DNA of 64,000 bases from Chitinophagales bacterium. Lineage in GTDB: Bacteria; Bacteroidota; Bacteroidia; Chitinophagales; Saprospiraceae. Under the pieces are notes generated by a model. That model saw only the letters and a program-made list of their open reading frames with translations. It had not been told where the DNA came from and ran no database searches. The translations under genes and the position numbers were made by a program. This document shows positions 5,035-57,885 of this stretch, in pieces. How positions within the stretch are numbered: the stretch's first letter is position 1; every line of letters starts with the position of its first letter. The stretch lies in NCBI GenBank assembly GCA_013298955.1, contig JAAFJT010000007.1, positions 21,160 to 85,159 of the forward strand, read 5' to 3'.

Positions 5035-8000
5035 TTACATATAAGGCTTATCGCAATCTGCAATCGCCATTTTCAATTTTTGGGTTTCTGCATTCGCATC
5101 GCGCCACCAATCATAAGACCAAATGCTAATAATCGACACTTGCATTGCCGTCAATTGGTTCAAAATCCGCCTTTCCAAATCGGCATTAAACGGCATGCCT
5201 TTCAATGCGTCATCCGTAAAACGCCCATCAATCCGAATTACAATCGGCGTTTGATTGACATAACGCGGTGTAATGACCAACATAAATCGTTGATTATCAA
5301 TTGGATAATCAAAATGAATGTGTCGCGAACCAATATCTTGTCCAATAATTTTAGCAATTTGGAGGACGAATGGCGATGGCTTTTCATCCTTAAAACGAGC
5401 GTAACGCTTGCGCAAACTTTCTAAGATGTACTGATACCGCGCTGTTTCTCCTTTTTGTGCAAATTCAAAATAAAACAAAATATTTGAAATCAAATAAGGC
5501 ACTTCCTTTTCAGGTAGTTCTGCGGCATTGCGCAAATCGCTTTTTTGAACGGAATTGACCCAATAAATTTTTTGCGTAAAACTATTTGCAATCATCCGCA
5601 ATTGTCGCTGATTCATCACAAATTGGTCTAATTGATGATACGTGCCACTCACAACGACGACATCAAATTGCAATCCAACCATTTCATCCACACTATAAAT
5701 CCCCAAACCATTGCGTTGCAAATGTTCAATCTTTTCCCAACCAAACAATGTTTTTTGTACAATATTTAACAAAATGGCATTCAATGAATTGCGTTGTTGT
5801 TTGGTCATCGTAACTACGCCAATACGCGGATACGTTTTCCAAGGCGTTGCATTGATTTCTTGCAAAATGCGGACGATTTCGGCAATTTCGGCTTCATTCG
5901 TTTGCGTGATTTCATGCATACGTCCGTTTTGAACATGAACGACTTTCGCCGCCTGTTCACCCAATGTATGACTCATCGGCAACCGCATATCGGGATAAAA
6001 AATCGCCCGATTCAAAGCCCGCACCGATTCGCTGACGTGCCGATGTAAATGATTCAAACGCACGGTCGGCGCACCCACCGCCTTCGCATACGCCGCCAAA
6101 GAAGCCACATCCCAATCTTCTACGGCTGCAATCATTTGATTGGAGGTGTTTTCACATAAGGCAACAACGCCATCTGTATTCTGCATCAAATCCTCAATCG
6201 ATTCTTTTGCAATGAGATGTGCATTTTCAAAAATAATATTTGTAAATAACGTACCTTCTCCTTTCAATAACGCCGTCGCAACCGCAGGCGGCATCAACAA
6301 CACAGGATAAATTTCAGATAACGATTCTGTATTGGTTTTTAAAATTTGTTGAAGCGATGATTGCTTGGTTAACGCAATATTATTTGCATCAAAAAAATGT
6401 TTATAAGTGGGCGGATTATGCTTTTTTAATTGCCGAATCACTTCATTTTTGCGTTCCTGCCAAAGCAAGGCAATCTGCGCAGGAAACATTTTGCGCAATT
6501 TATCACTGGCATCCATCAATTGTTGGGCTAAATCATCGCCAGTCGTTATATCTCTTTGATTATAAACAACTAAAATATTATGAAAATACCAGCTTTGAAA
6601 AGCCGATAACCAATCAGGCGGTTTCACTTTGACAATCGCTTTGACAATTTGTTTGCCTTTTTCGGACATTGCCAACCAATGTTCCTGCCATTGAAAAAAA
6701 GTATCGAAATCACGCAAATTTTGTTTGGTTTGTTCCAATCGTTCCAACGTTTCTTCTACAAAAAGTTGTCGTTTGGGCAACGATTGCACTTTATGGCTAA
6801 TCGGCGACTCGTATAAATGAATCCCATTCAATTCGGACAACAAATCTTCCAATTCATGTTCTAAGGCAACCACGCGTTGCGCAAAATGTGGGTCCAGATG
6901 TGCCGCCGTTTTGCCATTCAATCGATTGATTTGTTCTTGCACCATGCTTGGCAAAACCGCCCGCCATTGTTGCAACGAAACTTCAAAAACTTCTAAATTG
7001 GTACGCAAAAGCGGTACATTTTTGCGCTCATGCCCTTCTAAAAAAGGATGTTCAAAATATTTATACTCGCGACTATTAAAAATATCACGCAATTTTTGAT
7101 AAGCCAAAACCATTTTCTCCCGTGATTCTAAAATCGCTTTAGAACGGTCTGAAAACGCAGACATGATTTGTAAAGCACTGGTTTTCAAGAAGTTAGTAGT
7201 TTCAAAATCATTCCCAAATTGAAACAAATAATCCGAAATATCCTCTTTCAACCGTTGCAATTGTTCATACAATTCAGCATAGTGCATTTCGTAATGGTCG
7301 GTCAATCGTTGCGCATAGGCATCAATCATCCGAATATGCTGATGTTGAATGGCAGATAATTTATTCAAATACGTTTCTACTTTTTCTGCCACAAATCGAT
7401 AACTCATCCCGCCCGAAGCCGCTTGAAATAACGACGGATGCAAACTTGTCAACGGATGTTTCATCGTCCCTGCTTTGACAAACAAACGGTCTGAAGTTTC
7501 AATTTCATTTCTTAAAAAGTCATATTCATCTTCTTTGAATGTAAAATCACTTGGATTTAAATGATTTGTCAATAATTCACGACCCGCAACTTGACTGCTT
7601 TTAACATAACGCCCGACAATATCTGCCCACCGTTCTTGTCCAAAAACAGGTCGATTCAATGCTTCCGTCCGATTGTCCAACCGTTGCAACCATCGTCGCG
7701 CCTGTTTGAGCGTAATCAAATACGATTCGAGGTTGAAAGGTGGATTAGAAACCGTTTTGGTATTAATTTCCTGTCGCAACGAATCCAATAATATTTTTTT
7801 ATCATGCAGCAAATCTTTCAATAAAAAAGTCAGGTTTCCCAATCCATTATCCACAAAATGTTGTTGAATTTGAATCAAAGTTGCCATATCTTTTGCCACA
7901 ATCAAGGTTTTGCGCCCATTCGATGCCGCATTGAGGGCAATATTCGCCGCCAAATGCGTTTTACCCGTCCCATGTCCGCCTTCGGTGATGCTCAATCGTT

Positions 8001-8919
8001 GGCGCAAAATGGTTCTAAATGCGGTTCGTTGTTCTGCATCTTCGGGCAAAAGCGTAAATTCGTGCATTTGTTCCGCCCTGCCGAAAGCCGTAGAAGTGTC
8101 CGCCGTCGGAATTGCCACTTTCATCGTTGATTTAAAAAAAGTCGTTTCGACGACTTGATTTAAACTTTTTTGTTTTAAAAACAACGATTGTGGTTGAAAA
8201 AGTCCTAAAATGCCCGCCCACACAATATCGCCTGATTTCGATAAAACGCTCAATAAAGATGGATTGGGACATTCTCTCAAACCCGCATTTAAATGCAAGG
8301 TTTTATATTTCAAAACCTTTGCTAAATCTTTGGTCAAACTATCAAAAGCATTGATAGAGTAGTTTTTAGAAAGAATAAATTTTTGTAATTTATCTTTTAA
8401 ATCAACTTTATATTTGAGTTGAAAAAATTGCAATAGCGGCTCATTCACCACCAAAGGCGACATTTCATCCCTGCCAATCAGCCAACTATCGCGGCGATTC
8501 GGGTGCGGTTTTAGGTTTAAATACCAAATAAAAAGCGGCGCACTAATCGGCACAGGCTCCATCCCCGAAAACGTATCTTCGTCTATCATCAATGGAAAAC
8601 CAAAAGCGAAGGAATGTTGCCCACTCACTTTTTGGCGATTTCTATTTTCAAAATAAAAATGCCTCAATAATTCTGTATTGTGCAAATCTGCATGCAAATC
8701 CGTTTCCCAAGTACTCGCATTAAAAAAATGTTCCATCCATTTCGTCACGACCGGATAGACGCGATTGAAAAACAAAAATAAATCTGTTTTGTCTTTATCT
8801 AAGGGCAAAATATGCCAATACGGTTGTACAGAGGAGTCGATAGCTGTCGAACTCATAGTATCTAAGTTGTTGATTTTGAATGATAAAGCGTTAAACACAT
8901 AGGTCACATAGGTTTTCAT
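5035..8919 (-). CDS. large SF1 (Upf1/DNA2-like) helicase-family protein with a C-terminal DUF559/REase-like domain
   Basis: Walker A EGGHGTGKTHLAANIAL. Helicase-C-like MVGLQFDVVVVSGTY. C-terminal ..VIRIDGRF..SIISIWSYDWWRDANAE.. resembles Vsr/DUF559-type endonuclease tails of DUF4011/DUF3320 helicases. The first 21 codons are encoded by repeat DNA, so an alternative start at M22 (8856) is plausible. Confidence 0.7.
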   Translation of the reverse strand: MKTYVTYVFNALSFKINNLDTMSSTAIDSSVQPYWHILPLDKDKTDLFLFFNRVYPVVTKWMEHFFNASTWETDLHADLHNTELLRHFYFENRNRQKVSGQHSFAFGFPLMIDEDTFSGMEPVPISAPLFIWYLNLKPHPNRRDSWLIGRDEMSPLVVNEPLLQFFQLKYKVDLKDKLQKFILSKNYSINAFDSLTKDLAKVLKYKTLHLNAGLRECPNPSLLSVLSKSGDIVWAGILGLFQPQSLFLKQKSLNQVVETTFFKSTMKVAIPTADTSTAFGRAEQMHEFTLLPEDAEQRTAFRTILRQRLSITEGGHGTGKTHLAANIALNAASNGRKTLIVAKDMATLIQIQQHFVDNGLGNLTFLLKDLLHDKKILLDSLRQEINTKTVSNPPFNLESYLITLKQARRWLQRLDNRTEALNRPVFGQERWADIVGRYVKSSQVAGRELLTNHLNPSDFTFKEDEYDFLRNEIETSDRLFVKAGTMKHPLTSLHPSLFQAASGGMSYRFVAEKVETYLNKLSAIQHQHIRMIDAYAQRLTDHYEMHYAELYEQLQRLKEDISDYLFQFGNDFETTNFLKTSALQIMSAFSDRSKAILESREKMVLAYQKLRDIFNSREYKYFEHPFLEGHERKNVPLLRTNLEVFEVSLQQWRAVLPSMVQEQINRLNGKTAAHLDPHFAQRVVALEHELEDLLSELNGIHLYESPISHKVQSLPKRQLFVEETLERLEQTKQNLRDFDTFFQWQEHWLAMSEKGKQIVKAIVKVKPPDWLSAFQSWYFHNILVVYNQRDITTGDDLAQQLMDASDKLRKMFPAQIALLWQERKNEVIRQLKKHNPPTYKHFFDANNIALTKQSSLQQILKTNTESLSEIYPVLLMPPAVATALLKGEGTLFTNIIFENAHLIAKESIEDLMQNTDGVVALCENTSNQMIAAVEDWDVASLAAYAKAVGAPTVRLNHLHRHVSESVRALNRAIFYPDMRLPMSHTLGEQAAKVVHVQNGRMHEITQTNEAEIAEIVRILQEINATPWKTYPRIGVVTMTKQQRNSLNAILLNIVQKTLFGWEKIEHLQRNGLGIYSVDEMVGLQFDVVVVSGTYHQLDQFVMNQRQLRMIANSFTQKIYWVNSVQKSDLRNAAELPEKEVPYLISNILFYFEFAQKGETARYQYILESLRKRYARFKDEKPSPFVLQIAKIIGQDIGSRHIHFDYPIDNQRFMLVITPRYVNQTPIVIRIDGRFTDDALKGMPFNADLERRILNQLTAMQVSIISIWSYDWWRDANAETQKLKMAIADCDKPYM

Positions 8920-9465
8920 AGGTCACATAGGGGCGATACGCGCCTATATGTGGTCAGTGTGATACGCGCTAATGCGACCTACATAGGCGCGTATTATACC
9001 TACATATACATAGGCGCGTATAACACTACATAGGCGCGTATAACTACATAGGCGCGTATAATACCTATGTGACCTATAAAGACCTATGTGACCTATGTGT
9101 TTTAGGCGCGTATAACTACATAGGCGCGTATAATACCTATGTGACCTATAAAGACCTATGTGACCTATGTGTTTTAGGCGCGTATAACTACATAGGCGCG
9201 TATAAAAGACCTATGTGACCTATGTGTTTTAGGCGCGTATAACTACATAGGCGCGTATAATACCTATGTGACCTATAAAGACCTATGTGACCTATGTGTT
9301 TTAGGCGCGTATAACTACATAGGCGCGTATAATACCTATGTGACCTATAAAGACCTATGTGACCTATGTGTTTTAGGCGCGTATAACTACATAGGCGCGT
9401 ATAACTACATAGGCGCGTATAACACCTATGTGAGCTATAAAAACCTATGTGACCTATGTGTTTAA
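8891..9465. repeat. repeat island: about 72-bp tandem units built from TAGGCGCGTAT and GACCTAT sub-repeats, bounded by 26-bp perfect (about 42-bp imperfect) inverted repeats
   Basis: TTAAACACATAGGTCACATAGGTTTT (8891-8916) is the exact reverse complement of 9440-9465. Unit starts are spaced 72, 55, 72 and 72 bp (AGGCGCG at 9104, 9176, 9231, 9303, 9375). Confidence 0.9.
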
Positions 9466-10062
9466 CACTTCTAAAATATTTTTATAAATGGGTAATTCAG
9501 GTGTTATAAATGTTTTCACATCCACCCAAATCGCTTGTTCAATATCCTCTTCGGCTTGTGGCGTTAAGGTTGTTTCTTGCGTTTTCATGCTAAACCAGAA
9601 CGTTTCTTTTAAAATACGCTTTTCTTTTTGCTGATAGGTATGATAAGTTGTTTGTATTTGATGGAGCAATTCAATTTGTTGAATGCCCGTTTCTTCCTGC
9701 ACTTCTCGGACGGCGGCATGTTCTACGGATTCGCCTTTATCAATTTTGCCTTTGGGCAAATCCCAAAAATCGCGTCTAAAAATCAATAACGTTTTGCCTT
9801 CTGCATTTTCCACCACTCCACCTGCGGCTCGAATAATTTTATAAATGCTTTTAAAATCTGCCCATAATGCTTCTAAATCCTTGGAATGCAATAAGATATA
9901 ATTCATACCCTGATTTTTTTCCAATTTGTCAATGTACCAAAATAGGCTTTTCTTATCAATGTAAGGCATGACGAGCGATTTGGCTTGATTTTTCCAATCC
10001 ATAGAAACTGCGTCTGTTTGCATCAAATACAAAGGCGTATTGTTAATAAAAATTTTATACAT
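9454..10062 (-). CDS. NUDIX hydrolase
   Basis: Complete Nudix box GKIDKGESVEHAAVREVQEETGI. The last 3 codons and the stop lie inside the right inverted repeat of the repeat island. Confidence 0.85.
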   Translation of the reverse strand: MYKIFINNTPLYLMQTDAVSMDWKNQAKSLVMPYIDKKSLFWYIDKLEKNQGMNYILLHSKDLEALWADFKSIYKIIRAAGGVVENAEGKTLLIFRRDFWDLPKGKIDKGESVEHAAVREVQEETGIQQIELLHQIQTTYHTYQQKEKRILKETFWFSMKTQETTLTPQAEEDIEQAIWVDVKTFITPELPIYKNILEVLNT

Positions 10063-10261
10063 TTTGAATACGTTGTAGTGATTTTAAAAAAAGAATTACA
10101 TTTGCGCGTCCAAAATAAATTGAACACTTCGTTTACACGGATAGCGGAAAACATAGTATTTTTAGTTAAAATGCGAATCGCACCAATGCCCCATGATTTT
10201 CTGCCTAACCGATGCTGAATCGATGTGCAACCGTTTTACCCTGCAATATTAAGCATAATTG

Positions 10262-10885
10262 ATGAAACAATCCAAAGCCATTGCGCGTAAATTATTAGAA
10301 ATTCGTGCAGTTCGTCTGAATCCCAAACAACCCTTCACTTGGGCATCGGGTATTTTATCCCCGATTTACTGCGATAATCGTTTGTTATTATCCCATCCCT
10401 CCATACGTGATTTTACAACAAACGGTTTCGTAGAGTTGGCTGCTCAATTTGACGCATTTGATGTCGTGGCAGGTGTAGCCACTGCGGGCGTTCCACATGG
10501 CGTTTTATTGGCAGACCGTTTGCATAAACCATTCGTGTATGTCCGCGAAAAACCCAAAGCGCATGGTCGGCAAAACCAAATTGAAGGTTTTTTACCTGAA
10601 AATGCCCGCGTTTTGGTGATTGAAGACTTGATTTCGACAGGAGGAAGTAGTTTGAAAGCCGTCGAAGCGTTGAAAGCAGTGGGTGCGCAAGTGGTTGGCA
10701 CTGCCGCCATTTTCACCTATGGTTTTGAACGTGCAACGCAGGCTTTTGAAAAAGCAGATTGTTCATTGAAAACCTTGACGGATTACGATACTTTATTAGA
10801 AGTTGCCGTAGAAATGGGTTATGTGCCATCCGAAGATTTGGCTATTTTGTCAAAATGGCGCGTGTCGCCCGAAAATTGGATGTAA
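10262..10885 (+). CDS. pyrE: orotate phosphoribosyltransferase
   Basis: PRPP-binding loop VLVIEDLISTGGSSL. Type I PRTase length and layout. ATG at 10262, one codon after the track's TTG. Confidence 0.9.
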   Translation: MKQSKAIARKLLEIRAVRLNPKQPFTWASGILSPIYCDNRLLLSHPSIRDFTTNGFVELAAQFDAFDVVAGVATAGVPHGVLLADRLHKPFVYVREKPKAHGRQNQIEGFLPENARVLVIEDLISTGGSSLKAVEALKAVGAQVVGTAAIFTYGFERATQAFEKADCSLKTLTDYDTLLEVAVEMGYVPSEDLAILSKWRVSPENWM

Positions 10886-11040: not shown

Positions 11041-11194
11041 TGGTTTTGGATACAATTGGAACGCGGATGACGCGGATTGAACGGGTGAGCGCGGATTTTT
11101 TTTGAAATTCAGTGCAAAATCCGTGAAAATTCAAAAAAAATCCGTGAAAATTCGCCCAATCCGCGTTATCCGTGTTCCCATTGTATCATCAAAA
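11041..11194. repeat. CGGAT-family palindromic element, copy B (GGATACAATTGG-terminus subtype with an internal extra module)
   Basis: TGGTTTTGGATACAATTGGAACGCGGATGACGCGGATT ... AATCCGCGTTATCCGTGTTCCCATTGTATC. The inner about 100 nt are nearly identical to copy C. Confidence 0.85.
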
Positions 11195-12574: not shown

Positions 12575-12610
12575 CATTAAAGGCATAAAACTTGCGTCAG
12601 CAATTTCTGC

Positions 12611-12746
12611 TTTGTAGATTTTTGAAATAGGATGCGTATGATTGGAAGGATAAAAAGGATCTTTTGAGTTAAAATTTACGCTTTTCAACTGAAAAGTTCC
12701 TCAAAATCCTTCAAATCATAAGCATCTTATTTCAAAAATTTCCAAA
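12611..12746. repeat. long imperfect inverted repeat (36/41 nt) with an inner hairpin; possible AT-decayed relative of the CGGAT family
   Basis: 12611-12651 versus the reverse complement of 12706-12746. The left arm reads aaataGGAT gcgtatGAT tggaaGGAT aaaaaGGAT, four GGAT units at 9-nt spacing. It lies between convergent genes. Confidence 0.6.
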
Positions 12747-12771
12747 GTGGAATTACTAATGCTAAAAATAC

Positions 12772-19888: not shown

Positions 19889-22800
19889 ATGAGAAGCACA
19901 TTCTTCCTGATTTTGCTCTCGGCTCTAACCAGTTCGGAACTCTTCGCGCAAGATATTCCATTAATTCCGAGAGAACATTTTTTTGATAATCCGCAAATTG
20001 CTGGCGGACAACTTTCGCCTAATGGCAAAATGCTGTCTTTCACGAAGCCTTACATGGGTGAAATGAATCTTTGGGTGAAACAAGTCAATGAGCCTTTTGA
20101 CGCGGCTCGGGTGGTGACAGCCGATAGTCGTCCGATTCGACACTATTTTTGGACTGCGGATAGCAAATATTTGTTATACGTTCAGGACAAAAAAGGGGAT
20201 GAAAATTTCCACCTTTATGCTGTTAATCCGACGGACGCGCCTGATAAAGAGGGCGTACCGATAGCGCGGGATTTGACAGATATGAAAAATGTTCGGGCAT
20301 ATATTTATAATGTCTCGAAAAAAGACCCGAATGTGATTCGAGTCGGGTTGAATGATACAGACCCTGCTTGGCACAATCTGTACGAAATCAATATTGCATC
20401 AGGAGCGCGTAAATTATTGCGCGAAAACAAAGACCGTATTACGGATTGGACGTTCGATTGGGATGAAAACTTGCGTTTAGCAAGCCGCACCAATGAAGAT
20501 GGAACCACCGATATTTTGCGGGTTGAACCTGATAATATGATTAAAATTTACGATTGTGGGGCGTTAGAACAAGCCTATACACTTGCTTTTGACAAGGACA
20601 ATAAGCATGTGTATATGGTTTCCAATCATGGTTTGGAAAACAATTTCACGCGTTTGATGTTGCTTGACCCTGCTACAGGCAATGAAACGTTGGTGGAAAC
20701 AGACCCTGATAACAAAGTGGATTTTGAGGAAGCGTTTTTCTCAGAAGCCAGTCGGGAATTAATTTCGACCCGTTATTTTGATTTAAAACCGCGTGCGTAT
20801 TGGAAAAATAAGTTATTTGAAGCCGATTATAATTTATTAAAATCGCGTTTCATGGACAAAGAAGTGCAATTGGTCAATGCGGATGCGATGGAAAATCAAT
20901 GGTTAATATCGGTTTATTCGGATACAGACCCTGGTGAAATCCATTTATTAGACCGCACGACGAAGAAAATTACATTCCAATATCGCCCGCGTCCTAAATT
21001 GAAGCCTGAACAATTGGCTCAAATGATGGCGATTACTTATCCGTCTGTGGATGGATTAGAGATTCCTGCTTATTTGACGACTCCAAGAGGTAAAGTCGCT
21101 ACGAATTTACCATTGATGGTGGTTCCACATGGCGGTCCTTGGGCGCGTGATTATTGGGGTTATAATCGGTATGCGCAATTTTGGGCAAATCGGGGTTATG
21201 CGGTTTTAAGCATGAATTTTAGAGGCTCGACAGGTTATGGCAAGCGTTTTTTGGATGCGGGCAATAAACAGTGGGGCGATAGAATGCAAGATGATATTAC
21301 TTGGGGTGTAAAACATTTAGTTGAAAAAGGGATTGTGAATAAGGATAAAGTGGGGATTACAGGTGGTTCATACGGTGGTTATGCGACTTTGGCAGGGGTG
21401 ACTTTTACGCCTGATGTGTATAAAGCGGCAGTTGCAGAAGTGGCACCTTCTAATTTGAATACTTTATTGGCAACGATTCCGCCTTATTGGGAAGCGGGAC
21501 GCACGATGTTTCATTTGCGCATGGGTGACCCGACGAATGAAGCAGGTAAAGCCCTTTTGGAAAAACAATCTCCTTTGAATCATGTGGCAAATATCAAAAC
21601 ACCTTTGATGATTATTCAAGGTGGAAATGATCCGAGGGTCAAAAAAACGGAGGCTGACCAAATTGTAGTGGCAATGCGGGATAGTAAAATTCCTGTTGAA
21701 TACCTTTGTGCGATGGATGAAGGACATGGTTTTGCGCGTCCTGTGAATAATATGGCAGCATTGGCGGCATCGGAACGGTTCATGGCGAAATATTTAGGGG
21801 GGCGTTTTCAAGAGGAGATAACACCCGAAATTGCGCAGCGATTGGCGGAGATAACCGTTGATATTCAAACGGTTGCATTGGCAAATGCCCAGACTGATGC
21901 GACAAAAATGGCAAGTGCGAGTGCTAAAAAAGCACCAGAAATGCCTGTTGTCGTCGCTCCACAACCTGTTTACGCGCCACCCGCGATAACAAAAGGTGGT
22001 GAAACGATGGGTATGAAAGTGCAGCCTATGAAGGTAGAAAAAGCAATGGAACGGGCTAAAATGGCGGAATCTGCTGCTACGAAGGAAATGGCGCAACCTG
22101 CGGTAACAAAAACCGAAATGAAAGTGGAGGAAGTGAAATCAACGATTACGAAAGTAGAAGATATGAAGCTGGCGCAACCTACTGTTACTAAAACAGAAAT
22201 AGTTGTTGAAAATATGCCAAGCGTTACAAAAACGGAAACGATTGTAAAATCAGCACCCGTTGTAACCCAATCCGAAGTGACCAAAACGGAAATGGTTGTA
22301 AAATCAGCCCCTGTTGTGACCCAATCCGAAGTTACAAAAACGCAAAAAAGGGTTGAAGTAACCATAGATGAACATGGTAAGAGAACCGAAAAAATAACTG
22401 AAAATGTCACAACGACTCCACAGGAGCCAAATGTCAAAATGACGGACTCAAAGGTGGTGGTTCAATCAGAAACCGTTGTAAGTGAGCAAAATGGGAATGA
22501 CCGATTTTCAAATATAGGTGAAATGTTACAATCTACTACGGATTTAGCAGAAGGGACTTTTAAATATCATGTAACGGTACGGGCAAATAATCAAGAAACA
22601 CCGATTGAAACGGAATTGCTTAGAGAGGTCAAAGCAGAAGGCAATCGGTGGAAAATTACAGAAGTGTCGAAATCGGGCAATCAAAAAACGTCTGATGTCA
22701 ATACTTTGGAGCGAAAAACATTCAAACCTGTGCAACGAGAAACTGAAATCGGCGAAAAACGCATGGTTTTAGCTTACGAGCCAAGTTTGATGCGGAGTAA

Positions 22801-23228: not shown

Positions 23229-23317
23229 GGGCATGTAACAAAATTAGTAGTTGGGAAATTTATTTCACGTGTATCACGTGAAATAAATTTCCCAACTACT
23301 AATTTTGTTACATGCCC
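23229..23317. repeat. 89-nt perfect palindrome (43-nt arms, 3-nt centre) between convergent genes
   Basis: GGGCATGTAACAAAATTAGTAGTTGGGAAATTTATTTCACGTG-tat-exact reverse complement. Confidence 0.95.
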
Positions 23318-28219: not shown

Positions 28220-28364
28220 TGGTTTTGGATACAATTGGAACGCGGATGGAGCGGGTTAGCGCGGATTTTTTTTGAAATTCAGTGCAAAATTCGTAAAAAT
28301 TCAAAAAAAATCCGTGAAAATTCGCCCAATCCGCGTCATCCGCGTTCCAATTGTATTGCAAAAC
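28220..28364. repeat. CGGAT-family palindromic element, copy C (same subtype as copy B)
   Basis: TGGTTTTGGATACAATTGGAACGCGGATGGAGCGGG ... AATCCGCGTCATCCGCGTTCCAATTGTATTGCAAAAC. It ends 17 nt upstream of the ruvB ATG. Confidence 0.85.
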
Positions 28365-29493: not shown

Positions 29494-29598
29494 GTCTTAT
29501 CAATATAATTGAATCTTTGTTACACTAACGCATAACATTTAGATACTTTTTTCGTTTTGGACTTTTCATTTCAATCAAAAAAATTAATTCCAACTAAG

Positions 29599-29952
29599 AT
29601 GAAATTATTTAAATTTGTAGGATTTGCAGCGTTATTCATGGTTTCGTGCGAAGAAGCACCAAAAACGACCAGTAACCCAGTTAATACAACGCCCGTTGAG
29701 ACAAGAGCAACAACAGGTACGCCTTCTACAACGACAGCATTGCCTATTGAAAATGCAGCACTTCCAAAAGCGGCAGATGATGCTCCAAAAGCGGATGCAT
29801 CCAAAACGGCGGCTGATGCTCCGAAAGCAGTTGATGCTTCTAAAACCGTTGCAGCGATGTACGAATGCCCTATGAAATGCGAAAAGCCAAGTGCCAAAGC
29901 AGGTAAATGTGGCAAGTGCAAAATGGATTTGAAGGCGATTGCTCAAAAATAA
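29599..29952 (+). CDS. lipoprotein with a low-complexity linker and a C-terminal Cys-rich (heavy-metal-binding-domain-like) motif
   Basis: MKLFKFVGFAALFMVSC lipobox. Repeats DAPKADASKT / DAPKAVDASKT. C-terminal YECPMKCEKPSAKAGKCGKCKMDLK resembles the YxCPMH..CxxCGM metal-binding motif. Confidence 0.55.
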   Translation: MKLFKFVGFAALFMVSCEEAPKTTSNPVNTTPVETRATTGTPSTTTALPIENAALPKAADDAPKADASKTAADAPKAVDASKTVAAMYECPMKCEKPSAKAGKCGKCKMDLKAIAQK

Positions 29953-30858: not shown

Positions 30859-32211
30859 ATGAATAACATTTTGATTATTGGAGCAGGTCGCTCCTCTACG
30901 GCGTTGATAAATTACGTCCTCGAAAAAGCCAAATTTTATAATTGGTTTGTAACGGTAGCGGATGCGAACCACGAAGTCGCCCTTAAAAAAATTAATGGGC
31001 ATCCCAATGGACGCGGCACTTGGTTGGATGCAACGAAAGTCAATGACCGCCGTGAATTGATTCAACGCGCTGATGTGGTGGTTTCACTCTTGCCGCCGCA
31101 CCTTCATTTTGAAGTGGCGCAAGATTGTATTAAATTAAAACGGCATCTGATTACGGCTTCTTATATTTCAAAACAACTCTATGCGTTAGGCGATGAAGCC
31201 CGTTCTAAAGCATTGATTTTCATGGGCGAAATGGGGCTTGACCCCGGTATTGACCACATGAGTGGTAAACAAAAAATTGATGAAATTATTGCAAAAGGGG
31301 GGCGATTGAAATCATTTCGGTCTTACACAGGCGGTTTGGTCGCGCCTGAATCGGATGATAATCCTTGGCATTATAAGTTTACTTGGAATCCGCGCAATGT
31401 GGTTTTGGCAGGGCAGGGAACGGCGCAATATTTGGAAGAAGGCAAGTTGAAATACATTCCGTATAACAGACTGTTTACGCAATATCGTACCGTCAATGTG
31501 CCTAATATGGGCGAATGGGAAGCCTATCCGAATCGGGACTCGTTGTTATACAGAGAGTTGTATGATTTGGGTCCGATTCCCAATTTATTGAGAGGAACAT
31601 TGCGGCATAAAGGTTTTTGTGATGCTTGGAATGCGATCATTCAAATTGGGTTGACGGATGGCTCTTTTCCGATTTTGGATTCTGAAGAAATCACCTATCA
31701 CGAATTGATGGAATCTTTTGTTTCCAACAAAGCAACAGGTTCTTCGGTCAAGGAAAAAATTGCCAATATGTTGGGCGAACCTTCTGCGGATTCGCCTGTG
31801 ATGCAAAAATTGGAATGGCTTGGTTTGTTTCGGAAGAAAAAATTGCGTATCAAAAGTGCGACTCCTGCGTTGATTTTAGAACAATTATTGTTGGAAAAAT
31901 GGAAATTGAAAGATACCGAGCAGGATATGGTTATCATGCAGCACGAATTTGAATACGAATTGAACCGACAAATGCGGCGATTGACTTCCACATTGGTTTT
32001 GAAAGGAACGGATGGTAATAATACCGCGATGTCTCGATTGGTCGGTTTGCCGATTGGTATTTTTGTGAAATTAGTGATGTTGGGCAAAATTAATTCGATT
32101 GGGGTCAATATTCCTGTATTGAAAGAAGTTTATGAGCCTGTTTTAGAAGAATTAAAAGAATATGGAGTCATTTTTCAAGAAAAAGATGAAGTTCTAAAAG
32201 ATAAGGTGTAG
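30859..32211 (+). CDS. saccharopine dehydrogenase family oxidoreductase (LYS9-like)
   Basis: Rossmann motif ILIIGAGRSS. GLDPGIDHM motif. Confidence 0.8.
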   Translation: MNNILIIGAGRSSTALINYVLEKAKFYNWFVTVADANHEVALKKINGHPNGRGTWLDATKVNDRRELIQRADVVVSLLPPHLHFEVAQDCIKLKRHLITASYISKQLYALGDEARSKALIFMGEMGLDPGIDHMSGKQKIDEIIAKGGRLKSFRSYTGGLVAPESDDNPWHYKFTWNPRNVVLAGQGTAQYLEEGKLKYIPYNRLFTQYRTVNVPNMGEWEAYPNRDSLLYRELYDLGPIPNLLRGTLRHKGFCDAWNAIIQIGLTDGSFPILDSEEITYHELMESFVSNKATGSSVKEKIANMLGEPSADSPVMQKLEWLGLFRKKKLRIKSATPALILEQLLLEKWKLKDTEQDMVIMQHEFEYELNRQMRRLTSTLVLKGTDGNNTAMSRLVGLPIGIFVKLVMLGKINSIGVNIPVLKEVYEPVLEELKEYGVIFQEKDEVLKDKV

Positions 32212-32326
32212 AGCGAATTGAAACGCGGATGACACAGATTGGGCTGATTTTCGCGGATTTTTTGTTGTTTTAAAACAAAAAATCCGCGAAAATCAGCCCA
32301 ATCTGTGTCGTCCGCGTTCCAATTCT
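32209..32326. repeat. CGGAT-family palindromic element, copy D (GAGCGAATTG-terminus subtype); overlaps the stop codon of the upstream gene
   Basis: TAGAGCGAATTGAAACGCGGATGACACAGATTGGGCTGATTTTCGCGGATTTTTT ... mirror image. Confidence 0.9.
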
Positions 32327-32394
32327 ATCCTCACCTCACAGATGATGTATCTGTTTTAATTCTCAAAAACATTTTTTTATTCCAATAGACCCTT

Positions 32395-35793: not shown

Positions 35794-35797
35794 GTTT

Positions 35798-35946
35798 AGG
35801 ATACAATTGGAACACGGATGACGCGGATTTTCGCGAATTTTTAACCTTGCATAGATTTTTATTTTTATAATAGATTAAGATTCAAAAATAAAAAAAATCC
35901 GCGAAAATTCGCCCAATCCGCGTCATCCGCGTTCCAATTGTATCCT
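35798..35946. repeat. CGGAT-family palindromic element, copy E (left arm internally truncated)
   Basis: AGGATACAATTGGAACACGGATGACGCGGATTTTCGCG ... AATCCGCGAAAATTCGCCCAATCCGCGTCATCCGCGTTCCAATTGTATCCT. It starts 5 nt after the stop codon. Confidence 0.85.
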
Positions 35947-36138
35947 AATTTTCCAAAGTAGAAACGCTGAGGAGTTTTAAAGTCAATCATTTAAAAAAAA
36001 TAATTTAAAAAACATAAATTATTCTAATTTAATGCAAAACATATGAATTTTATTATAAATATATTTCAAATGATATGGAATCCCATTGACCAAATCATTG
36101 GAAACGCAATGAATTTGCTCACAAGTCGCCTAAAAAAG

Positions 36139-37758: not shown

Positions 37759-37966
37759 AGCGAATTGGAACGCGGATGACGCAGATAGGGCGAATTTATA
37801 CATTGCGGCGGGTGGTTTTGGATACAATTGGAACGCGGATGACGCAGATAGGGCGGATTTTCACGGATTTTTTTAAAAAAAAACAAAAAATCCGTGAAAA
37901 TCCGCCTATCTGCGTCATCCGCGTTCCAATTTATATCCTTCGTAGTTTCAATTTATATCCTTCGTA
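37756..37966. repeat. composite CGGAT-family locus (copy F): an orphan left arm, then a complete element, then an 18-nt flank duplication
   Basis: Orphan left arm at 37756-37795 (GAGCGAATTGG type). Full element at 37813-37937 (GGATACAATTGG type). CAATTTATATCCTTCGTA occurs twice (37927 and 37949). Confidence 0.85.
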
Positions 37967-42580: not shown

Positions 42581-42596
42581 TGCAACTATCAAATGT

Positions 42597-42703
42597 AATA
42601 CAATTGGAACGCAGATGACACGGATTGGGCGGATTTTCGCGGATTTTAAAAAAAAATCTGCGAAAATCCGCCCAATCCGTGTCATCCGCGTTCCAATCGT
42701 ATT
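42597..42703. repeat. CGGAT-family palindromic element, copy G, filling the gap between convergent genes
   Basis: AATACAATTGGAACGCAGATGACACGGATTGGGCGGATTTTCGCGGATTTT-aaaaaaa-mirror image. It lies 17 nt from one stop codon and 5 nt from the other. Confidence 0.9.
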
Positions 42704-42708
42704 ATAAT

Positions 42709-43833
42709 TTAAATATTTATTAAATTAATAATTTGTAAGGCATTCAGTTCATCAGAAAAGATATTTTCTAAAATAATGCGTCTTTTTTCAAGGATTGTTG
42801 TCGAAAAAGGTATTTGCGCTACTTGATGCAACATTTGCAACATTTGTTCGGGTGTATCTGCGACATGACAGAGCGAATCTAAACCTGTCTGCTGCACCAT
42901 CGGTGTATTAACAATACAATGTCGCCCCGAATAAAGGGCATTCAATAATTTCAATTTTAAGCCTGCGATTTGAAAAGAAAGTAGGATTTGAATATGACTT
43001 TTTTGAATCAATTCATCCATCAATTCATCATCTGGATTTGCAATAATTTGAATATTTTTAAATGGTTTTGCTTTGATTATCAACAACTTAGATGGATTCA
43101 ATCCTGCAATGGTGAAGGGCATATCCGAATGGGCGAACACTTTTTCAATTAAAAACAAAGCCGCTTGTTCATTATCGGAAACACTTAATTTGCCATGAAA
43201 CAATGCACCGTGTCCCATGCCTATCGGAGCATTTACGGTATGATGTCCATGAAAAGGCAGTATCAAATGTGTATTTGGATGAATCTTTTTAAAATAATTA
43301 AAATCATTCGGCGCAATCGCCAGCAGGGTAGGGTTTTGTTTTAAAACCTTTTTTTCAAAAGATTGTAGTTTGATGGATTCCCATTTGAAAAAGAGTTGCT
43401 TCCACCATTTGGGTTCTAAATGGGCTAAATTTTGATAATATTGCCATTCTATATTGTGCATTCTAACCATATATTGCCTGTCACAATTCAACAATTTATT
43501 TAAATAAAAGCAAGTATGCAAACCTTCAAATAGGATAGGATAATTATCTTCCTTTAATCTTTTGAGCAAATCGGGATGCGCTCTTGTATTTACAATGAAA
43601 GGTTGAGCCGATAAAATTTTCCAAAAAAAAACGTCACGCGGATAATAATAAACCCTTGTGCATAATTTTTCCAAAATTATATTTGGTATCCTATCTCCAT
43701 ATTGGAAATTATGTAAAATTATTTTAATATTTTGTGCTTGTAATGCTTTGATTTTATAAAAAACATCTATCACGCCACCATAATTGGCAGGGAAAGGAAT
43801 ATCAAAACTAATAATATGCAAAAAAGAGTTCAT
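42709..43833 (-). CDS. glycosyltransferase (GT-B fold, GT4/group-1-like)
   Basis: N-terminal HIISFDIPFPANYGGVIDVFYKIKAL and a C-terminal sugar-nucleotide-binding-like half. Assigned by overall resemblance only. Confidence 0.5.
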   Translation of the reverse strand: MNSFLHIISFDIPFPANYGGVIDVFYKIKALQAQNIKIILHNFQYGDRIPNIILEKLCTRVYYYPRDVFFWKILSAQPFIVNTRAHPDLLKRLKEDNYPILFEGLHTCFYLNKLLNCDRQYMVRMHNIEWQYYQNLAHLEPKWWKQLFFKWESIKLQSFEKKVLKQNPTLLAIAPNDFNYFKKIHPNTHLILPFHGHHTVNAPIGMGHGALFHGKLSVSDNEQAALFLIEKVFAHSDMPFTIAGLNPSKLLIIKAKPFKNIQIIANPDDELMDELIQKSHIQILLSFQIAGLKLKLLNALYSGRHCIVNTPMVQQTGLDSLCHVADTPEQMLQMLHQVAQIPFSTTILEKRRIILENIFSDELNALQIINLINI

Positions 43834-43995: not shown

Positions 43996-44706
43996 ATGTA
44001 TAGAAATCCAATTTTCATTAACCTTTTTTGCACCTTTTTACTTTTACCCTTAGCAAGTCAAGCACAACGTTTTGAAACGGGTCTTCATGCTGGATTTAGC
44101 TATTTTATGGGCGACATCACAGACCGCATGAATGCCATCAATGTCGGTTTTGGCGGACATTTTACGTATTGCCCACATCCCAAAATAGCAGCGCGCCTTG
44201 ATTTGATGAATCTATTTCTCTCAGGAGATGATAAAGGTTCTCCGAGCGCGTATAAACAAAATCGAGGTTTTAAGTTTTTATACAATGTACAGGAAGTCAG
44301 TTTAATGGGGGAATTACGCCCGTTTGATAGCGATAAATTGAGTCATATCGGGCATTTTGAACAAAGTATCACACCTTACGGATTTGGAGGCGCAGGCTTA
44401 TTGACCCGAGTGAGTGGTAAAGCACAAGCACCTTTGGTGGAAACTTCACCGTTTCCAGAAGCAGGCGATACGAAAACGACTTTCCCTTTTTTGATTGGCG
44501 GTGGCGGTTTGCGTTGGCATTTCGCACAGCGTTATAAATTGAGTGCCGAAGGCAGTGGTCGCTATTACTTTTCGGATTATGTGGATGGTATCAGTAATTC
44601 GGCAAACCCGAAAAGCAAAGATTTATCTTTTTTTGGCAATTTGACGCTCACTTATATTTTGGATATGCCGATTGGTGTGCGCAAACGCAATTGGTTTTTA
44701 TTGTAA
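43996..44706 (+). CDS. outer-membrane beta-barrel protein (DUF6089-like)
   Basis: Signal peptide ..LLLPLASQAQ. Alternating amphipathic strands. GLHAGFSYFMGDI start. Confidence 0.55.
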   Translation: MYRNPIFINLFCTFLLLPLASQAQRFETGLHAGFSYFMGDITDRMNAINVGFGGHFTYCPHPKIAARLDLMNLFLSGDDKGSPSAYKQNRGFKFLYNVQEVSLMGELRPFDSDKLSHIGHFEQSITPYGFGGAGLLTRVSGKAQAPLVETSPFPEAGDTKTTFPFLIGGGGLRWHFAQRYKLSAEGSGRYYFSDYVDGISNSANPKSKDLSFFGNLTLTYILDMPIGVRKRNWFLL

Positions 44707-45010
44707 ATGTTGTAAATTGGAACGCGGATGACACCGATTGGGCTGATTTTCGCGGATTTTTTAAAAAAAAATCCGCGAAAATCCGCCCAATCCGTACCAT
44801 CCGCGTTCCAATTTATAACACGCCCCAACTTACTTTGGATGTGCCGATTGGTGTGCGCAAACGAAATTGGTTTTTATTGTAAATGTTGTAAATTGGAACG
44901 CGGATGACACCGATTGGGCGGATTTTCGCGGATTTTTTTTTAAAAAATCCGCGAAAATCCACCCACTCTGCGTCATCCGCGTTCCAATTTATAACACGCC
45001 CCAACTTACT
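44659..45010. repeat. 176-bp tandem duplication (44659-44834 and 44835-45010); each unit is the last 48 nt of the DUF6089 gene (15 codons plus stop) plus one CGGAT-family element (copies H1 44714-44813 and H2 44890-44989)
   Basis: TTGGAT[A/G]TGCCGATTGGTGTGCGCAAACG[C/A]AATTGGTTTTTATTGTAAATGTTGTAAATTGGAACGCGG... repeats with period 176. Confidence 0.9.
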
Positions 45011-51133: not shown

Positions 51134-51177
51134 AGATGGATTCATTGGATTATTATAATAATCCAATGAATCCATCT
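51134..51177. repeat. 44-nt perfect palindrome
   Basis: AGATGGATTCATTGGATTATTA immediately followed by its exact reverse complement. Confidence 0.9.
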
Positions 51178-54121: not shown

Positions 54122-54227
54122 TATTGAAACGCGGATGACGCAGATTGGGCGGATTTTCACGGATTTTTTTATAAAAAAATCCGTGAAAATCCGCCCAATC
54201 TGCGTCATCCGCGTTCCAATTCGCTCG
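54122..54227. repeat. CGGAT-family palindromic element, copy I (cleanest compact copy)
   Basis: TATTGAAACGCGGATGACGCAGATTGGGCGGATTTTCACGGATTTTTTT-ata-AAAAAAATCCGTGAAAATCCGCCCAATCTGCGTCATCCGCGTTCCAATTCGCTC. Confidence 0.9.
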
Positions 54228-55901: not shown

Positions 55902-56582
55902 TGGAGGCATTTTGAGCGAATTGGAACGCGAATGACGCAGATTGAGCGGATTTTCACGGATTTTTTTTAAAATCCGCGAAAATCCGCCCAATATTTTCGT
56001 CATGTTGCGCTGGTTAAATCGCATTATTCGACAATATGTCGTTTAATGGAGGCATTTTGAGCGAATTGGAACGCGGATGACGCAGATTGTTTTTTAAAAT
56101 CCGCGAAAATCCGCCCAATATTTTCGTCATGTTGCGCTGGTTAAATCGCATTATTCGACAATATGTCGTTTAATGGAGGCATTTTGAGCGAATTGGAACG
56201 CGGATGACGCAGATTGGGCGGATTTTCACGGATTTTTTTTAAAATCCGCTAAAATCCGCCCAATATTTTCGTCATGTTGCGCTGGTTAAATCGCATTATT
56301 CGACAATATGTCGTTTAATGGAGGCATTTTGAGCGAATTGGAACGCGAATGACGCAGATTGAGCGGATTTTCACGGATTTTTTTTAAAATCCGCGAAAAT
56401 CCGCCCAATATTTTCGTCATGTTGCGCTGGTTAAATCGCATTATTCGACAATATGTCGTTTAATGGAGGCATTTTGAGCGAATTGGAACGCGGATGACGC
56501 AGATTGAGCGGATTTTCACGGATTTTTTTTAAAATCCGCGAAAATCCGCCCAATCTGCGTCATCCGCGTTCCAATTCGCTCG
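55848..56582. repeat. tandem array x5 (unit 145 bp; one 127-bp variant); each unit is the last 54 nt of the POT gene, a 13-nt spacer and a right-arm-truncated CGGAT element. Only the last unit carries the complete right arm.
   Basis: ATTTTCGTCATGTTGCGCTGGTTAAATCGCATTATTCGACAATATGTCGTTTAATGGAGGCATTTTGAGCGAATTGGAACGCG... starts at 55848, 55993, 56120, 56265 and 56410. Confidence 0.95.
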
Positions 56583-57774: not shown

Positions 57775-57885
57775 TAGAGCAATTGGAACGCGGATGACAC
57801 GGATTTGGCAGATTTTCGCGGATTTTTTTAACAAAAAATCCGTGAAAATCCGCCCAATCCGTGTCATCCGCGTTCCAATAGTATC
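57775..57885. repeat. CGGAT-family palindromic element, copy K, between the two thioredoxin-fold paralogues
   Basis: TAGAGCAATTGGAACGCGGATGACACGGATTTGGCAGATTTTCGCGGATTTTTTT ... AATCCGTGAAAATCCGCCCAATCCGTGTCATCCGCGTTCCAATAGTATC. Confidence 0.9.

Follow-up and report, generated by a model that had tools for sequence, protein, structure and literature searches.

The repeat island that separates a Nudix hydrolase gene from an SF1-type helicase-like gene in the DNA analysed here (a stretch of 64 kb, hereafter the window) is, as judged from the alignment of its two outer arms, a member of a dispersed Bacteroidota family of long hairpin-forming intergenic palindromes. We consider it rather likely that this family member arrived at the locus recently, that one of its arms was then amplified, and that the resulting REPIN-, BIME- or MITE-like element probably serves as a 3'-end or intercistronic hairpin. 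Since the island appears to have been acquired in this strain only, with one arm multiplying afterwards, it is probably dispensable repeat DNA rather than a genetic switch.

Architecture of the repeat island and its flanking genes

In the initial annotation the 575 bp between positions 8891 and 9465 were described as an island of two sub-repeats. The island is real, and its two motifs, the GC-rich near-palindrome TAGGCGCGTAT and CCTATG/CATAGG, together cover 73% of it (Table 1). Sixteen exact copies of TAGGCGCGTAT were found, all within the island, 15 on the forward strand and one on the reverse strand (8936-8946, after the left-arm CATAGG motifs), in line with the earlier count of about 16. 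Elsewhere in the window TAGGCGCGTAT has just two matches, each with one mismatch; the chance expectation was 0.61, and the observed count was reached in none of 100 shuffles. The 13 double motifs resembling GACCTATGTGACCTAT also lie exclusively within the island (0.01 expected). Single CCTATG/CATAGG motifs number about 25, and their reported arrangement in runs of four with 9-10 nt phasing stood, the spacings being 9, 10 and 9 nt.

Table 1 Features of the repeat island and of the genes on either side (positions in the window).
Feature	Position	Strand	Description
SF1-type helicase-like gene	5035..8856	-	Probable true start ATG 8856 (MSSTAIDSS...)
N-terminal extension of the helicase ORF	8857..8919	-	21 codons (MKTYVTYVFNALSFKINNLDT), probably spurious
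Left (helicase-side) outer arm	8891..8947	.	Aligns in register with other Bacteroidota CATAGG arms
Centre/loop of the original palindrome	8948..8983	.	One degenerate inverted GC-rich copy (GATACGCGCTAA)
Inner right arm	8984..9030	+	Two TACATAGGCGCGTAT copies, irregular spacing (27 and 20 nt)
Young tandem array	9031..9373	+	72-bp units and one 55-bp unit
Terminal diverged 92-bp unit, the original right (Nudix-side) outer arm	9374..9465	+	Pairs with the left arm
Nudix hydrolase gene	9454..10062	-	Last three codons and stop inside the right terminal repeat

The left outer arm carries four CATAGG motifs (starting at 8896, 8905, 8915 and 8924). Its first 26 nt, TTAAACACATAGGTCACATAGGTTTT (8891-8916), are the exact reverse complement of 9440-9465, as previously noted, and the inverted repeat extends beyond the 42 nt or so first proposed, to 62-nt arms (8886-8947 and 9409-9470) with 90% complementarity. 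The perfect repeats enclose a segment of 523 bp and are the ordinary arm pair of a palindromic element, not a separate bracket around the island. The switch in motif orientation, reported near 8960-8985 in the initial annotation, was confirmed within 8948-8983. The two TACATAGGCGCGTAT copies in the inner right arm seem to derive from the innermost arm motif by older duplications and to have diverged since.

The young array comprises four identical 72-bp units (starting at 9031, 9103, 9230 and 9302), their number depending on the assembly of the source genome, and a 55-bp variant with an internal deletion of 17 bp (9175-9229), the array unit consisting of two TAGGCGCGTAT motifs followed by four CCTATG motifs. 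Head-to-tail units of 10-100 bp with high identity are typical of a minisatellite or VNTR, and the 72-bp period with its four identical units agrees with this. A perfect higher-order repeat is also present, with positions 9031-9205 exactly matching 9230-9404 (175 nt, 199-nt period), and Tandem Repeats Finder returned periods of 72 bp (5.9 copies) and 199 bp (1.9 copies, 100% identity). The terminal unit is 92 bp long and diverged, with three TAGGCGCGTAT and four CCTATG-type motifs; its last 26 nt form the perfect terminal inverted repeat, and its pairing with the left arm spans 62 nt (90%).

A CRISPR array was rejected, as the stretches between the repeats are repeated too and no unique spacers exist. 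Coding by the island was likewise discarded, the 65-aa ORF at 9268-9465 lying wholly in repeats, and both motif orientations hold in-frame stops (TAG in CATAGG, TGA in CCTATGTGA). A chromosomal origin with iterons was also rejected: there is neither a skew turn at the island nor an initiator gene, and a conspecific strain lacks the island. Rfam scans, permissive for 8000-10500 and at gathering thresholds for the whole window, revealed nothing relevant, the sole match (to a CRISPR repeat model) lying outside the island at chance level (E = 0.86).

As first annotated, the right repeat contains the last three codons and the stop of the Nudix gene (TTA AAC ACA TAG), and the TAG belongs to a CATAGG motif; in the conspecific empty allele described below, the protein ends in the same residues (EVLNT*) encoded by different codons. 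The proposal that the left repeat encodes the helicase start stood only in part. The long ORF does open at 8919 within this repeat (MKTYVTYVFN), with an ATG from a CCTATG motif of the left arm, but an 89%-identical orthologue and about 30 more homologues start 8-12 residues before a conserved Y-x-x-LPL, and the equivalent of ATG 8856 is called as the start in orthologous loci also. Because the homologues begin at this distance from Y-x-x-LPL, the helicase probably starts at ATG 8856, 35 nt outside the island, and the start at 8919 would be an ORF-calling artefact. The CCTATGTG motif provides both ATG and GTG codons, over-extension of ORFs into family members was seen at other loci as well, and the NCBI-sourced database helicase protein (P0001, 1294 aa) appears 21 codons too long. 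For annotation, the element yields false start codons (helicase) yet a real Nudix stop codon.

The gene neighbourhood includes, besides the Nudix hydrolase and the SF1-type helicase, a GH32 enzyme and a phosphoribosyltransferase. No regulator, replication, partition or initiator gene was found adjacent to the island, and Pfam scans of all large ORFs detected no recombinase or transposase, including Y1/RAYT, among the 36 ORFs spanning the window. A defence-system context was rejected, the helicase and Nudix proteins giving only domain-level matches, far below cut-offs, to the Hhe, ProA and PDC models.

The CATAGG palindrome family

The CATAGG-type family was defined in the present analysis by arms of three or four (C)ACATAGG motifs with 9-10 nt spacing, inverted around a spacer, the arms ending in AACACATAGG...CCTATGTGTT with the termination ...CCTATGTGTT(T)AA. 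The island has such phased inverted arms (spacing 9, 10 and 9 nt), and alignment of 8891-8947 and 9409-9465 with 14 arms, taken from seven elements in other genomes, gave 80% and 71% consensus identity, respectively, in register. Family members lie mostly between co-directional genes and abut the stop codon of the upstream gene, lying at -9 to +5 nt from that stop and 17-70 nt before the next gene; at the island the Nudix TAG sits in the terminal motif. Some members have loops as short as 6 to 40 nt, and elements nest within the loops of other hairpins.

The 18-mer ACACATAGGTCACATAGG had matches in 41 DNA stretches of the genome_contigs collection, at least 14 of which are Bacteroidota contigs with the 18-mer inside a CATAGG repeat cluster; the remaining matches, mostly from Actinomycetota and other phyla, may be due to chance, and at no locus were several island-like matches seen. 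The MAG JBDLWG01 has copies on at least six contigs, each a palindrome of about 105 nt with some four CATAG(G) motifs per arm, a Saprospiraceae MAG carries a perfect, shorter version of the palindrome, and in a relative whose Nudix protein is 86% identical, one CATAGG copy lies 2.3 kb from the Nudix gene. The island is the single copy in the window, where no other CATAGG element was found. Co-evolution of the two arms was considered, but a likeness of 0.82 within elements against 0.76 between elements is too weak for compensatory evolution.

No joint occurrence of TAGGCGCGTAT and CATAGG was found elsewhere, either in viral or in metagenome sequences. Viral contigs scanned for exact patterns of each motif gave 0 matches, the metagenome scan for the TAGGCGCGTAT pair retrieved eight stretches, of which the four that were read (L043, L044, L046 and L047) are unrelated simple repeats without CATAGG, and blastn of 8880-9110 against phages and plasmids returned no match. 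Literature searches on the motif strings and on palindromic repeat families of Bacteroidota turned up no account of this family.

The arm pair common to the family bears on the proposal that the island is a phase-variable segment, in which inversion of the DNA between the 26-bp repeats, by a site-specific recombinase or through homologous recombination, would switch expression of the helicase gene. Invertible promoters are common in Bacteroidota, and the perfect repeats (62 nt at 90%) do flank 523 bp of DNA 35 nt upstream of the probable helicase start. We nevertheless consider inversion very improbable: the same pair is seen in every family member as part of an ordinary two-arm palindrome, even in members whose loops, at 6 to 40 nt, are too short for a promoter, and the helicase start probably lies outside. 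The Bacteroidota -7 box TAnnTTTG, already reported missing from the island, is absent from both strands of 8780-9520, sigma-70-like matches are no commoner than in shuffled sequence, and neither a promoter inside the segment nor a recombinase among the window ORFs was found. As the left arm, which is one repeat unit inverted, pairs equally with four internal units (87% over 60 nt), there is also no unique recombination site.

An empty allele and the proposed history of the island

A conspecific short-read metagenome contig of 983 bp (L051) lacks the island. Its flanks are 98.5% identical to those in the window (824 nt with 12 mismatches and 147 nt with 2 mismatches), and in place of the island it has only the 20-mer TTAAATACCTAATGTGTTAA. 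Because this 20-mer can be aligned with the sequence that encodes the Nudix C-terminus in a more distant relative (L053), it is native sequence, and an excision scar or footprint was rejected on the same ground. Between the filled and the empty allele, about 12 native bases were replaced and none was duplicated beyond the palindromic TTAA of the repeat; no target-site duplication is recognisable in this comparison. A second filled allele was searched for and none was found, the difference seen between strains being one of presence versus absence only. In five other lineages, the Nudix-helicase spacer holds unrelated palindromes with arms of 25 to 67 nt. This spacer is a hairpin hotspot and, to judge from the sequences of the two conspecific alleles, the island is probably dispensable within the species. 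A clean filled/empty pair in one species and seven alleles of one intergenic spacer across the genus are rare material on the arrival, replacement and expansion of bacterial palindromic repeats.

L051 is the only other contig of the species, and the four identical 72-bp units and the 175-nt perfect repeat are hard for short reads, which could point to an assembly artefact, namely a mis-joined or over-extended graph loop at a locus that is in reality much shorter. We hold this to be highly unlikely, as the outer arms, the centre and the irregular inner duplications are unique sequence with mutations of their own, the arms match a real family from independent genomes, and the L051 spacer is a different, native sequence and not a collapsed island. 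Given these unique arms and this native spacer, an artefact could alter the number of units but not create the element.

The empty allele also weighs on another candidate of the initial annotation, a protein-binding platform, which could be an iteron, operator or centromere array. Here the TAGGCGCGTAT copies and the phased CATAGG runs would recruit a DNA-binding protein, which could be a ribbon-helix-helix or HTH factor, a nucleoid protein or gyrase, and so regulate the helicase gene or organise local DNA. Exact motif conservation favours this, and the 16 precisely conserved copies of the near-palindromic 11-mer TAGGCGCGTAT would fit a binding array (ATAGGCGCGTAT, read directly from the sequence, is palindromic at 10 of 12 positions), as would the 9-10 nt spacing in runs, which is about one helical turn. 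The terminal CATAGG sequence is moreover conserved across several Bacteroidota orders, which would fit recognition by a conserved protein, and E. coli BIMEs bind gyrase and IHF. We judge a platform unlikely all the same: the island is missing from a strain with nearly identical flanks and so lacks the within-species conservation of an iteron or centromere, its motifs occur at no other site of the window, no initiator, partition, replication or regulator gene adjoins it, and the TAGGCGCGTAT pair did not turn up with CATAGG in the viral or metagenome collections. Recent duplication explains the perfect identity of the four 72-bp units, and selection is not needed.

The remaining original candidate, a MITE with a minisatellite core, came closest, in that the family is dispersed, the tandem core is recent and a strain without the island exists. 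A classical MITE would have arisen from an insertion sequence by deletion and would be mobilised through its terminal inverted repeats by the DDE transposase of a parent with ends AACACATAGGTCACATAGG, its core having expanded later. The terminal inverted repeats (26 bp perfect, 62 nt at 90%), the small size (575 bp), the intergenic position, the dispersal of the family in other genomes and its presence in one conspecific strain but not another all speak for it. In this strict sense, however, we find the MITE reading improbable. A fixed-length target-site duplication is unrecognisable at the island, and none is consistent at nine other family members; some 12 native bases were replaced, not duplicated; no transposase gene adjoins any inspected copy or lies in the window, and none with these ends was found. 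Loop nesting and stop abutment fit hairpin-directed or template-switch spread better than cut-and-paste.

According to the hairpin-family reading that we favour, a copy of the palindrome would have been inserted, recently in the ancestry of the strain, into the short stretch that separates the Nudix stop from the helicase start, replacing about 12 native bases; we infer both the direction and the mechanism of this insertion. Each junction lies within a short stretch of similar sequence, which is GTGTTAAA next to the Nudix gene and CCTAATGTGTTAA against CCTATGTGTTTAA next to the helicase gene. Head-to-tail multiplication of the right arm's inner half would have followed, here or already in the donor copy, duplication affecting the GC-rich near-palindrome TAGGCGCGTAT first, then the 72-bp unit (two TAGGCGCGTAT motifs and a four-motif arm) and lastly a segment of some 199 bp. 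The repeats are likely to have multiplied by slippage during replication or by unequal exchange between sister strands, and the outcome would be one left arm facing six right arms. Arm amplification is a habit of such elements, as illustrated by the internal 42-nt arm duplication in family member L006 and by the tandem clusters of CGGAT-type palindromes. Neither a target-site duplication nor an autonomous element was found, and the putative mobility is suggested by the dispersal of the family and by presence or absence between strains.

In function, the island would resemble a REP/BIME or REPIN cluster, its arms folding as a very stable stem on the Nudix-helicase transcript or on single-stranded DNA, and this stem would tag or shield the 3' end of the Nudix mRNA and let less transcription run on into the helicase gene. 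The sense strand of the whole island folds at -243.6 kcal/mol (z = -14) and the outer palindrome alone at -106 kcal/mol, and the scan detected no canonical intrinsic terminator with a T-run at the island. By analogy, the arms would act as a terminator or attenuator, an effect on transcription that we infer. For the cell, the amplified interior is most likely neutral or a slight burden, and it would be unstable as a variable-number repeat.

We also put forward, tentatively, a wider possibility that we hold to be somewhat doubtful, namely that these elements form an undescribed Bacteroidota-wide class of long intergenic palindromes in which each arm consists of three or four short motifs with 9-10 nt phasing. 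Such a class might comprise the CATAGG, CGGAT and CGAAT types, with the 7-nt ATGA heptads as a relative and the island as its most extreme visible case. Its traits might be a position on stop codons, loop nesting, mutual replacement at an orthologous spacer within a genus, lack of target duplication and amplification of single arms into minisatellites. This behaviour would imply a dedicated spread mechanism, since classical transposition would not explain it; hairpin-loop-directed insertion and template switching at stalled forks are candidates, and a conserved protein reading the phased motifs is another possibility. If the class were coherent and had its own spread mechanism, it would be a Bacteroidota counterpart to the REPIN-RAYT systems of Proteobacteria, and the island would lend itself to strain typing and would probably be a fragile site; if it were not, the island would be ordinary repeat DNA.

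Comparison with known repeat systems

Iteron and centromere arrays, such as F sopC, R1 parC and the heptad operators of omega proteins, share with the island short tandem motifs, helical phasing and, in some cases, both motif orientations. The island differs from them in its chromosomal housekeeping-gene context, in having no adjacent partition, replication or regulator gene and in its absence from a conspecific strain.

Closer parallels are found among MITEs and long palindromes, namely Neisseria Correia, enterobacterial ERIC/IRU, pneumococcal BOX and RUP, and cyanobacterial Nezha elements. As in these, ordinary CATAGG family members are about 100-150 nt long, have terminal inverted repeats, are inserted beside genes and are predicted to form stable RNA hairpins. 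BOX elements also vary in the number of internal modules, in likeness to the island. In contrast to these elements, the island shows no visible target-site duplication and has no known parent insertion sequence, and its arms are internally periodic and amplified to six units, making a 575-bp locus.

The REP/BIME/REPIN systems of Proteobacteria are exemplified by Pseudomonas REPINs and E. coli BIME-2 and are mobilised by RAYT (Y1) tyrosine transposases, encoded by a cognate single-copy gene that the repeats usually flank. The likeness to the island and its family lies in multi-copy extragenic palindromic units between co-directional genes and at 3' ends, in presence/absence polymorphism between close strains and, for REPINs, in two inverted arms around a spacer. 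REP/BIME clusters form by tandem reiteration of units plus adjacent DNA (PMC3733652), and the island is a tandem-reiteration cluster too. In REP units a GTAG or CGTC tetranucleotide is conserved at the head of the palindromic unit (PMC3733652), whereas the termini of the island are AACACATAGG; CTAC lies 5' of TAGGCGCGTAT on the forward strand, so that GTAG stands 3' of the body on the other strand, in a mirror arrangement. The arms of the island family are also longer (45-60 nt, with four phased 9-10-nt sub-repeats) than a REP, which is a single imperfect palindrome of 20-40 nt, no RAYT gene was seen in the window, and the phylum is Bacteroidota.

The CGGAT palindromes of the same window and the CGAAT and ATGA-heptad palindromes of relatives resemble the island in that each arm is built from three or four short motifs with 9-10 nt phasing (7 nt in the ATGA heptads), in the kind of position they occupy and in tandem amplification with flanking DNA. 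The layout of the four-motif phased run is indeed shared with the arms of the CGGAT elements, as the initial annotation had proposed. In the window, tandem amplification of CGGAT-type palindromes along with the DNA beside them is seen at 44658-45010 and 55847-56554. The CGGAT and CATAGG types differ in motif sequence and in number of sites in the window, at least 12 against one, and palindromes of the CGGAT, CGAAT and ATGA-heptad kinds occupy the same Nudix-helicase spacer in relatives.

Unit structure of the island and its flanking genes

The first 26 nt of the island (8891-8916) are the exact reverse complement of its last 26 (9440-9465), as the initial annotation had stated, and the pairing extends to 62-nt arms at 90% complementarity. 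The GC-rich near-palindromic motif TAGGCGCGTAT occurs in 16 exact copies, all within the island (15 on the plus strand and one on the minus strand), against an expectation of 0.6 in the whole window and with none of 100 shuffles reaching the observed count; every one of the 13 copies of the double CATAGG motif also lies there. In the motif map the CCTATG motifs form runs of four, spaced by 9, 10 and 9 nt, so that the earlier description of the island was accurate.

Among the units, 9031-9205 is identical to 9230-9404 (175 nt, with a period of 199 nt). ACA precedes every GC-rich motif, so that TACATAGG-CGCGTAT includes an oppositely oriented CATAGG motif, which makes a small hairpin of each 72-bp unit. 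The variant AAAACC is private to the left arm and the terminal unit, the internal units carrying AAAGACC, so that the outer arms are an old pair and the interior is young. The left arm also pairs with four internal units (87% over 60 nt) and is an ordinary unit in inverted orientation. The bracketing inverted repeat of the initial annotation is simply one inverted unit opposite six direct units.

Coordinates of the island parts, cut at unit boundaries, of the flanking genes and of other intergenic palindromes
Feature	Position	Description
Left arm	8891-8947	four CATAGG motifs followed by a single inverted copy of the GC-rich motif
Centre		36 nt, between left arm and first irregular GC-rich motif
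Two GC-rich motifs	8984, 9011	irregular spacing
72-bp units, four	starts 9031, 9103, 9230, 9302	identical
55-bp unit	start 9175	17-bp internal deletion
Terminal 92-bp unit	9374-9465	diverged
Nudix hydrolase gene	9454-10062	minus strand
SF1-type helicase-like ORF	5035-8919	minus strand; 1273/1294 aa
Heptad palindrome, L054	1965-2044	Nudix-helicase spacer; ATGATGA/ATGATAA arms, 35 nt
Heptad palindrome, L056	1001-1103	Nudix-helicase spacer; ATGATGA/ATGATAA arms, 48 nt
Heptad palindrome, L052	5606-5758	Nudix-helicase spacer; ATGATGA/ATGATAA arms, 67 nt
CGGAT palindromes	591-778, 28229-28356, 35796-35948, 37826-37931, 42591-42709, 44708-44996, 54123-54220, 55941-56581, 57782-57879	
Other long intergenic palindromes	11049-11187, 12605-12752, 23229-23317, 32204-32336, 51134-51177	

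The Nudix stop lies inside the right arm (TTA AAC ACA TAG), as proposed initially. The island had also been said to overlap the helicase start codon; the open reading frame does reach 8919, but homologues match a start outside the island. An orthologue with 89% identity begins MSPIISDS..., and in about 30 further homologues the N-terminus lies 8-12 residues ahead of a conserved Y-x-x-LPL motif, which places the probable start at ATG 8856, beyond the island by 35 nt. The ATG of the 21-codon extension is supplied by a CCTATG motif, and the NCBI-sourced database protein P0001 (1294 aa) appears to be 21 codons too long; open reading frames in other genomes are likewise over-extended into CATAGG family members. 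The helicase-like gene is kept beside the Nudix gene in Saprospiraceae-like genomes. Its Pfam matches (AAA_12, AAA_30, PhoH) were all sub-threshold, and it resembled the anti-phage helicases Hhe and ProA weakly, at scores far below threshold; comparison of the helicase and Nudix proteins with defence helicases yielded nothing beyond sub-threshold similarity at the level of domains.

The CATAGG family and an allele lacking the island

An exact scan for ACACATAGGTCACATAGG, with one genome per species, returned 41 loci. Matches outside Bacteroidota were single (we estimate about 17 chance matches at this collection size), and those in Bacteroidota were structured. Six contigs of the metagenome-assembled genome (MAG) JBDLWG01 each carry a palindrome of about 105 nt, of the form AACACATAGG-TCACATAGG-nGACATAGG-nCACATAGGG, loop and mirror image, and a perfect three-motif version lies between T and A runs in a Saprospiraceae MAG. 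A second subfamily, ending in ...CCTATGTGTCTATGTGGTT, was found in Bacteroidales, Flavobacteriales, Crocinitomicaceae and Chitinophagaceae. When the island arms are aligned with 14 arms from the first subfamily, the motifs stay in register, and identity to the consensus of those arms is 80% and 71%. Family members are intergenic, mostly between co-directional genes; they touch the stop codon of the upstream gene or overlap it, and 17-70 nt separate them from the next gene, which is exactly the position of the island. In the member L006, 42 nt of an arm are duplicated internally.

Composite intergenic arrays were observed in Flavobacteriales and Crocinitomicaceae MAGs (L010:5600-6260, L005:1350-1960 and L027:2270-2450), where three-motif CATAG runs and other short tandem modules (TTACAAG x3-4, AAAAGT x3-4, GTGATGA) are together repeated in tandem with a period of about 150-250 bp. 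In a Jiulongibacter MAG (L004:4560-4690), a solitary half arm, CCCTATGTGACCTATGTGTTAAAAAAAA, adjoins a different GC-rich repeat-like sequence, GCTCCGCTGCTATCCCTCAGCCGG, which suggests mosaic junctions joining unrelated repeat families.

Six more copies of the locus were reached through Nudix homologues. In L051, a conspecific 983-bp short-read metagenome contig with flanks 98.5% identical to the window, TTAAATACCTAATGTGTTAA alone stands between GAAGTG and CGCTTTATC, with no island. The L051 Nudix protein also ends in EVLNT before its stop, through codons that differ from those of the island at three synonymous positions. Because the 20-mer of L051 can be aligned with the stretch that encodes the Nudix C-terminus (KKYPN) in L053, a more distant relative, it is native, and the island is therefore a gain in the lineage of the window. 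The insertion replaced about 12 native bases and duplicated none, and its junctions fall within short similarities, GTGTTAAA at one side and CCTAATGTGTTAA versus CCTATGTGTTTAA at the other.

Other palindromes at the spacer and across the window

In other lineages, with Nudix identities of 84-87%, this spot is occupied by different palindromes. In the heptad palindromes of three related lineages (L054, L056 and L052) both arms have lengthened in step; the left one begins within the Nudix stop-codon region, where the native AATGACAAATGA looks like the seed of a heptad run. The spacer of L053 and that of L055 contain a purine-rich hairpin. In L001 (1509-1622) a CGAAT-type palindrome (CGAATTTT) is nested centrally in the remains of a heptad palindrome, and in L053 a CATAGG palindrome 2.3 kb away (812-975) holds a CGAAT-type hairpin exactly in its loop; new elements seem to enter preferentially at the loops of hairpins already present. 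A second CGAAT element of L001 directly follows the helicase stop (5485-5550).

Long intergenic palindromes number at least 14 in the window. Most belong to the CGGAT type, whose sites (about a dozen, intergenic) amount to roughly one per 5 kb. CGGAT arms (47-71 nt, 90-99% complementarity) consist of four motifs at 9-10 nt phasing, typically AATTGGAACGCGGATGAC-CAGATTGGG-CGGATTTTC-CGGATTTTTT followed by the mirror image, and thus share the four-unit layout of the island, as had been noticed; Rfam gave no family match for them. Two have been amplified in tandem, each along with some 100 bp of unique flanking DNA, at 44658-45010 (176 bp x 2, 93% identity) and 55847-56554 (145/272-bp units x 3, 94-98% identity), and in the latter the unit stops midway in the right arm, only the last copy having a complete one. 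This is the same behaviour as that of the island, and with two such arrays arm-plus-flank amplification is recurrent among the palindromes of this genome; matching amplification has been described in REP clusters (PMC3733652).

Among the other types, 23229-23317 is perfect, with 43-nt arms, and 12605-12752 occupies a spacer orthologous to one with a CATAGG element in L053. In-frame coding tandem repeats were seen at 22226-22346 (54 bp x 2.2, in a 1089-aa S9 peptidase-like ORF) and at 29761-29846 (36 bp x 2.3, in the small ORF 29557-29952).

Origin, putative function and related elements

The island is a CATAGG-family palindrome, absent in a conspecific strain, with an interior of very recent duplicates. 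It may have arrived by a process without duplication that used short similarity, candidates being template switching, hairpin-directed insertion or a tyrosine-type transposase, after which the inner right arm would have expanded by slippage or unequal exchange. No recombinase or transposase was found among the 36 ORFs across the window, which are ordinary chromosomal genes (rsmG, ruvB, yidC, lptFG-like genes, glycosidases, peptidases and others), and the island had no phage or plasmid similarity and no Rfam family match. The absence of a TAnnTTTG promoter box, remarked on initially for the island, extended to 8780-9520, and sigma-70-like sites were not in excess. A CRISPR array was rejected, as was a coding sequence, the island being without coding potential.

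The outer arm pair has a predicted folding energy of -106 kcal/mol, and the whole island a z of -14. On the transcript the arms could form a very stable stem acting as a 3'-end barrier or a Nudix-helicase intercistronic attenuator, a role we infer from the stop-codon position and from the analogy to REP/BIME and other palindromes between genes. For the amplified part a separate function is unlikely, and we expect it to be unstable.

The closest known kinds are REP/BIME/REPIN clusters and MITE-like palindromes, with which the island shares inverted units, extragenic position, strain polymorphism and tandem clustering; the GTAG/CGTC head tag of the former and the target-site duplication of a MITE are both absent from it. 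We found no description of the CATAGG family in the searchable literature, and what most merits further work is the broader class of palindromes with phased motifs. The family is set apart from these known systems by its internally periodic arms, loop nesting and turnover at one spacer.
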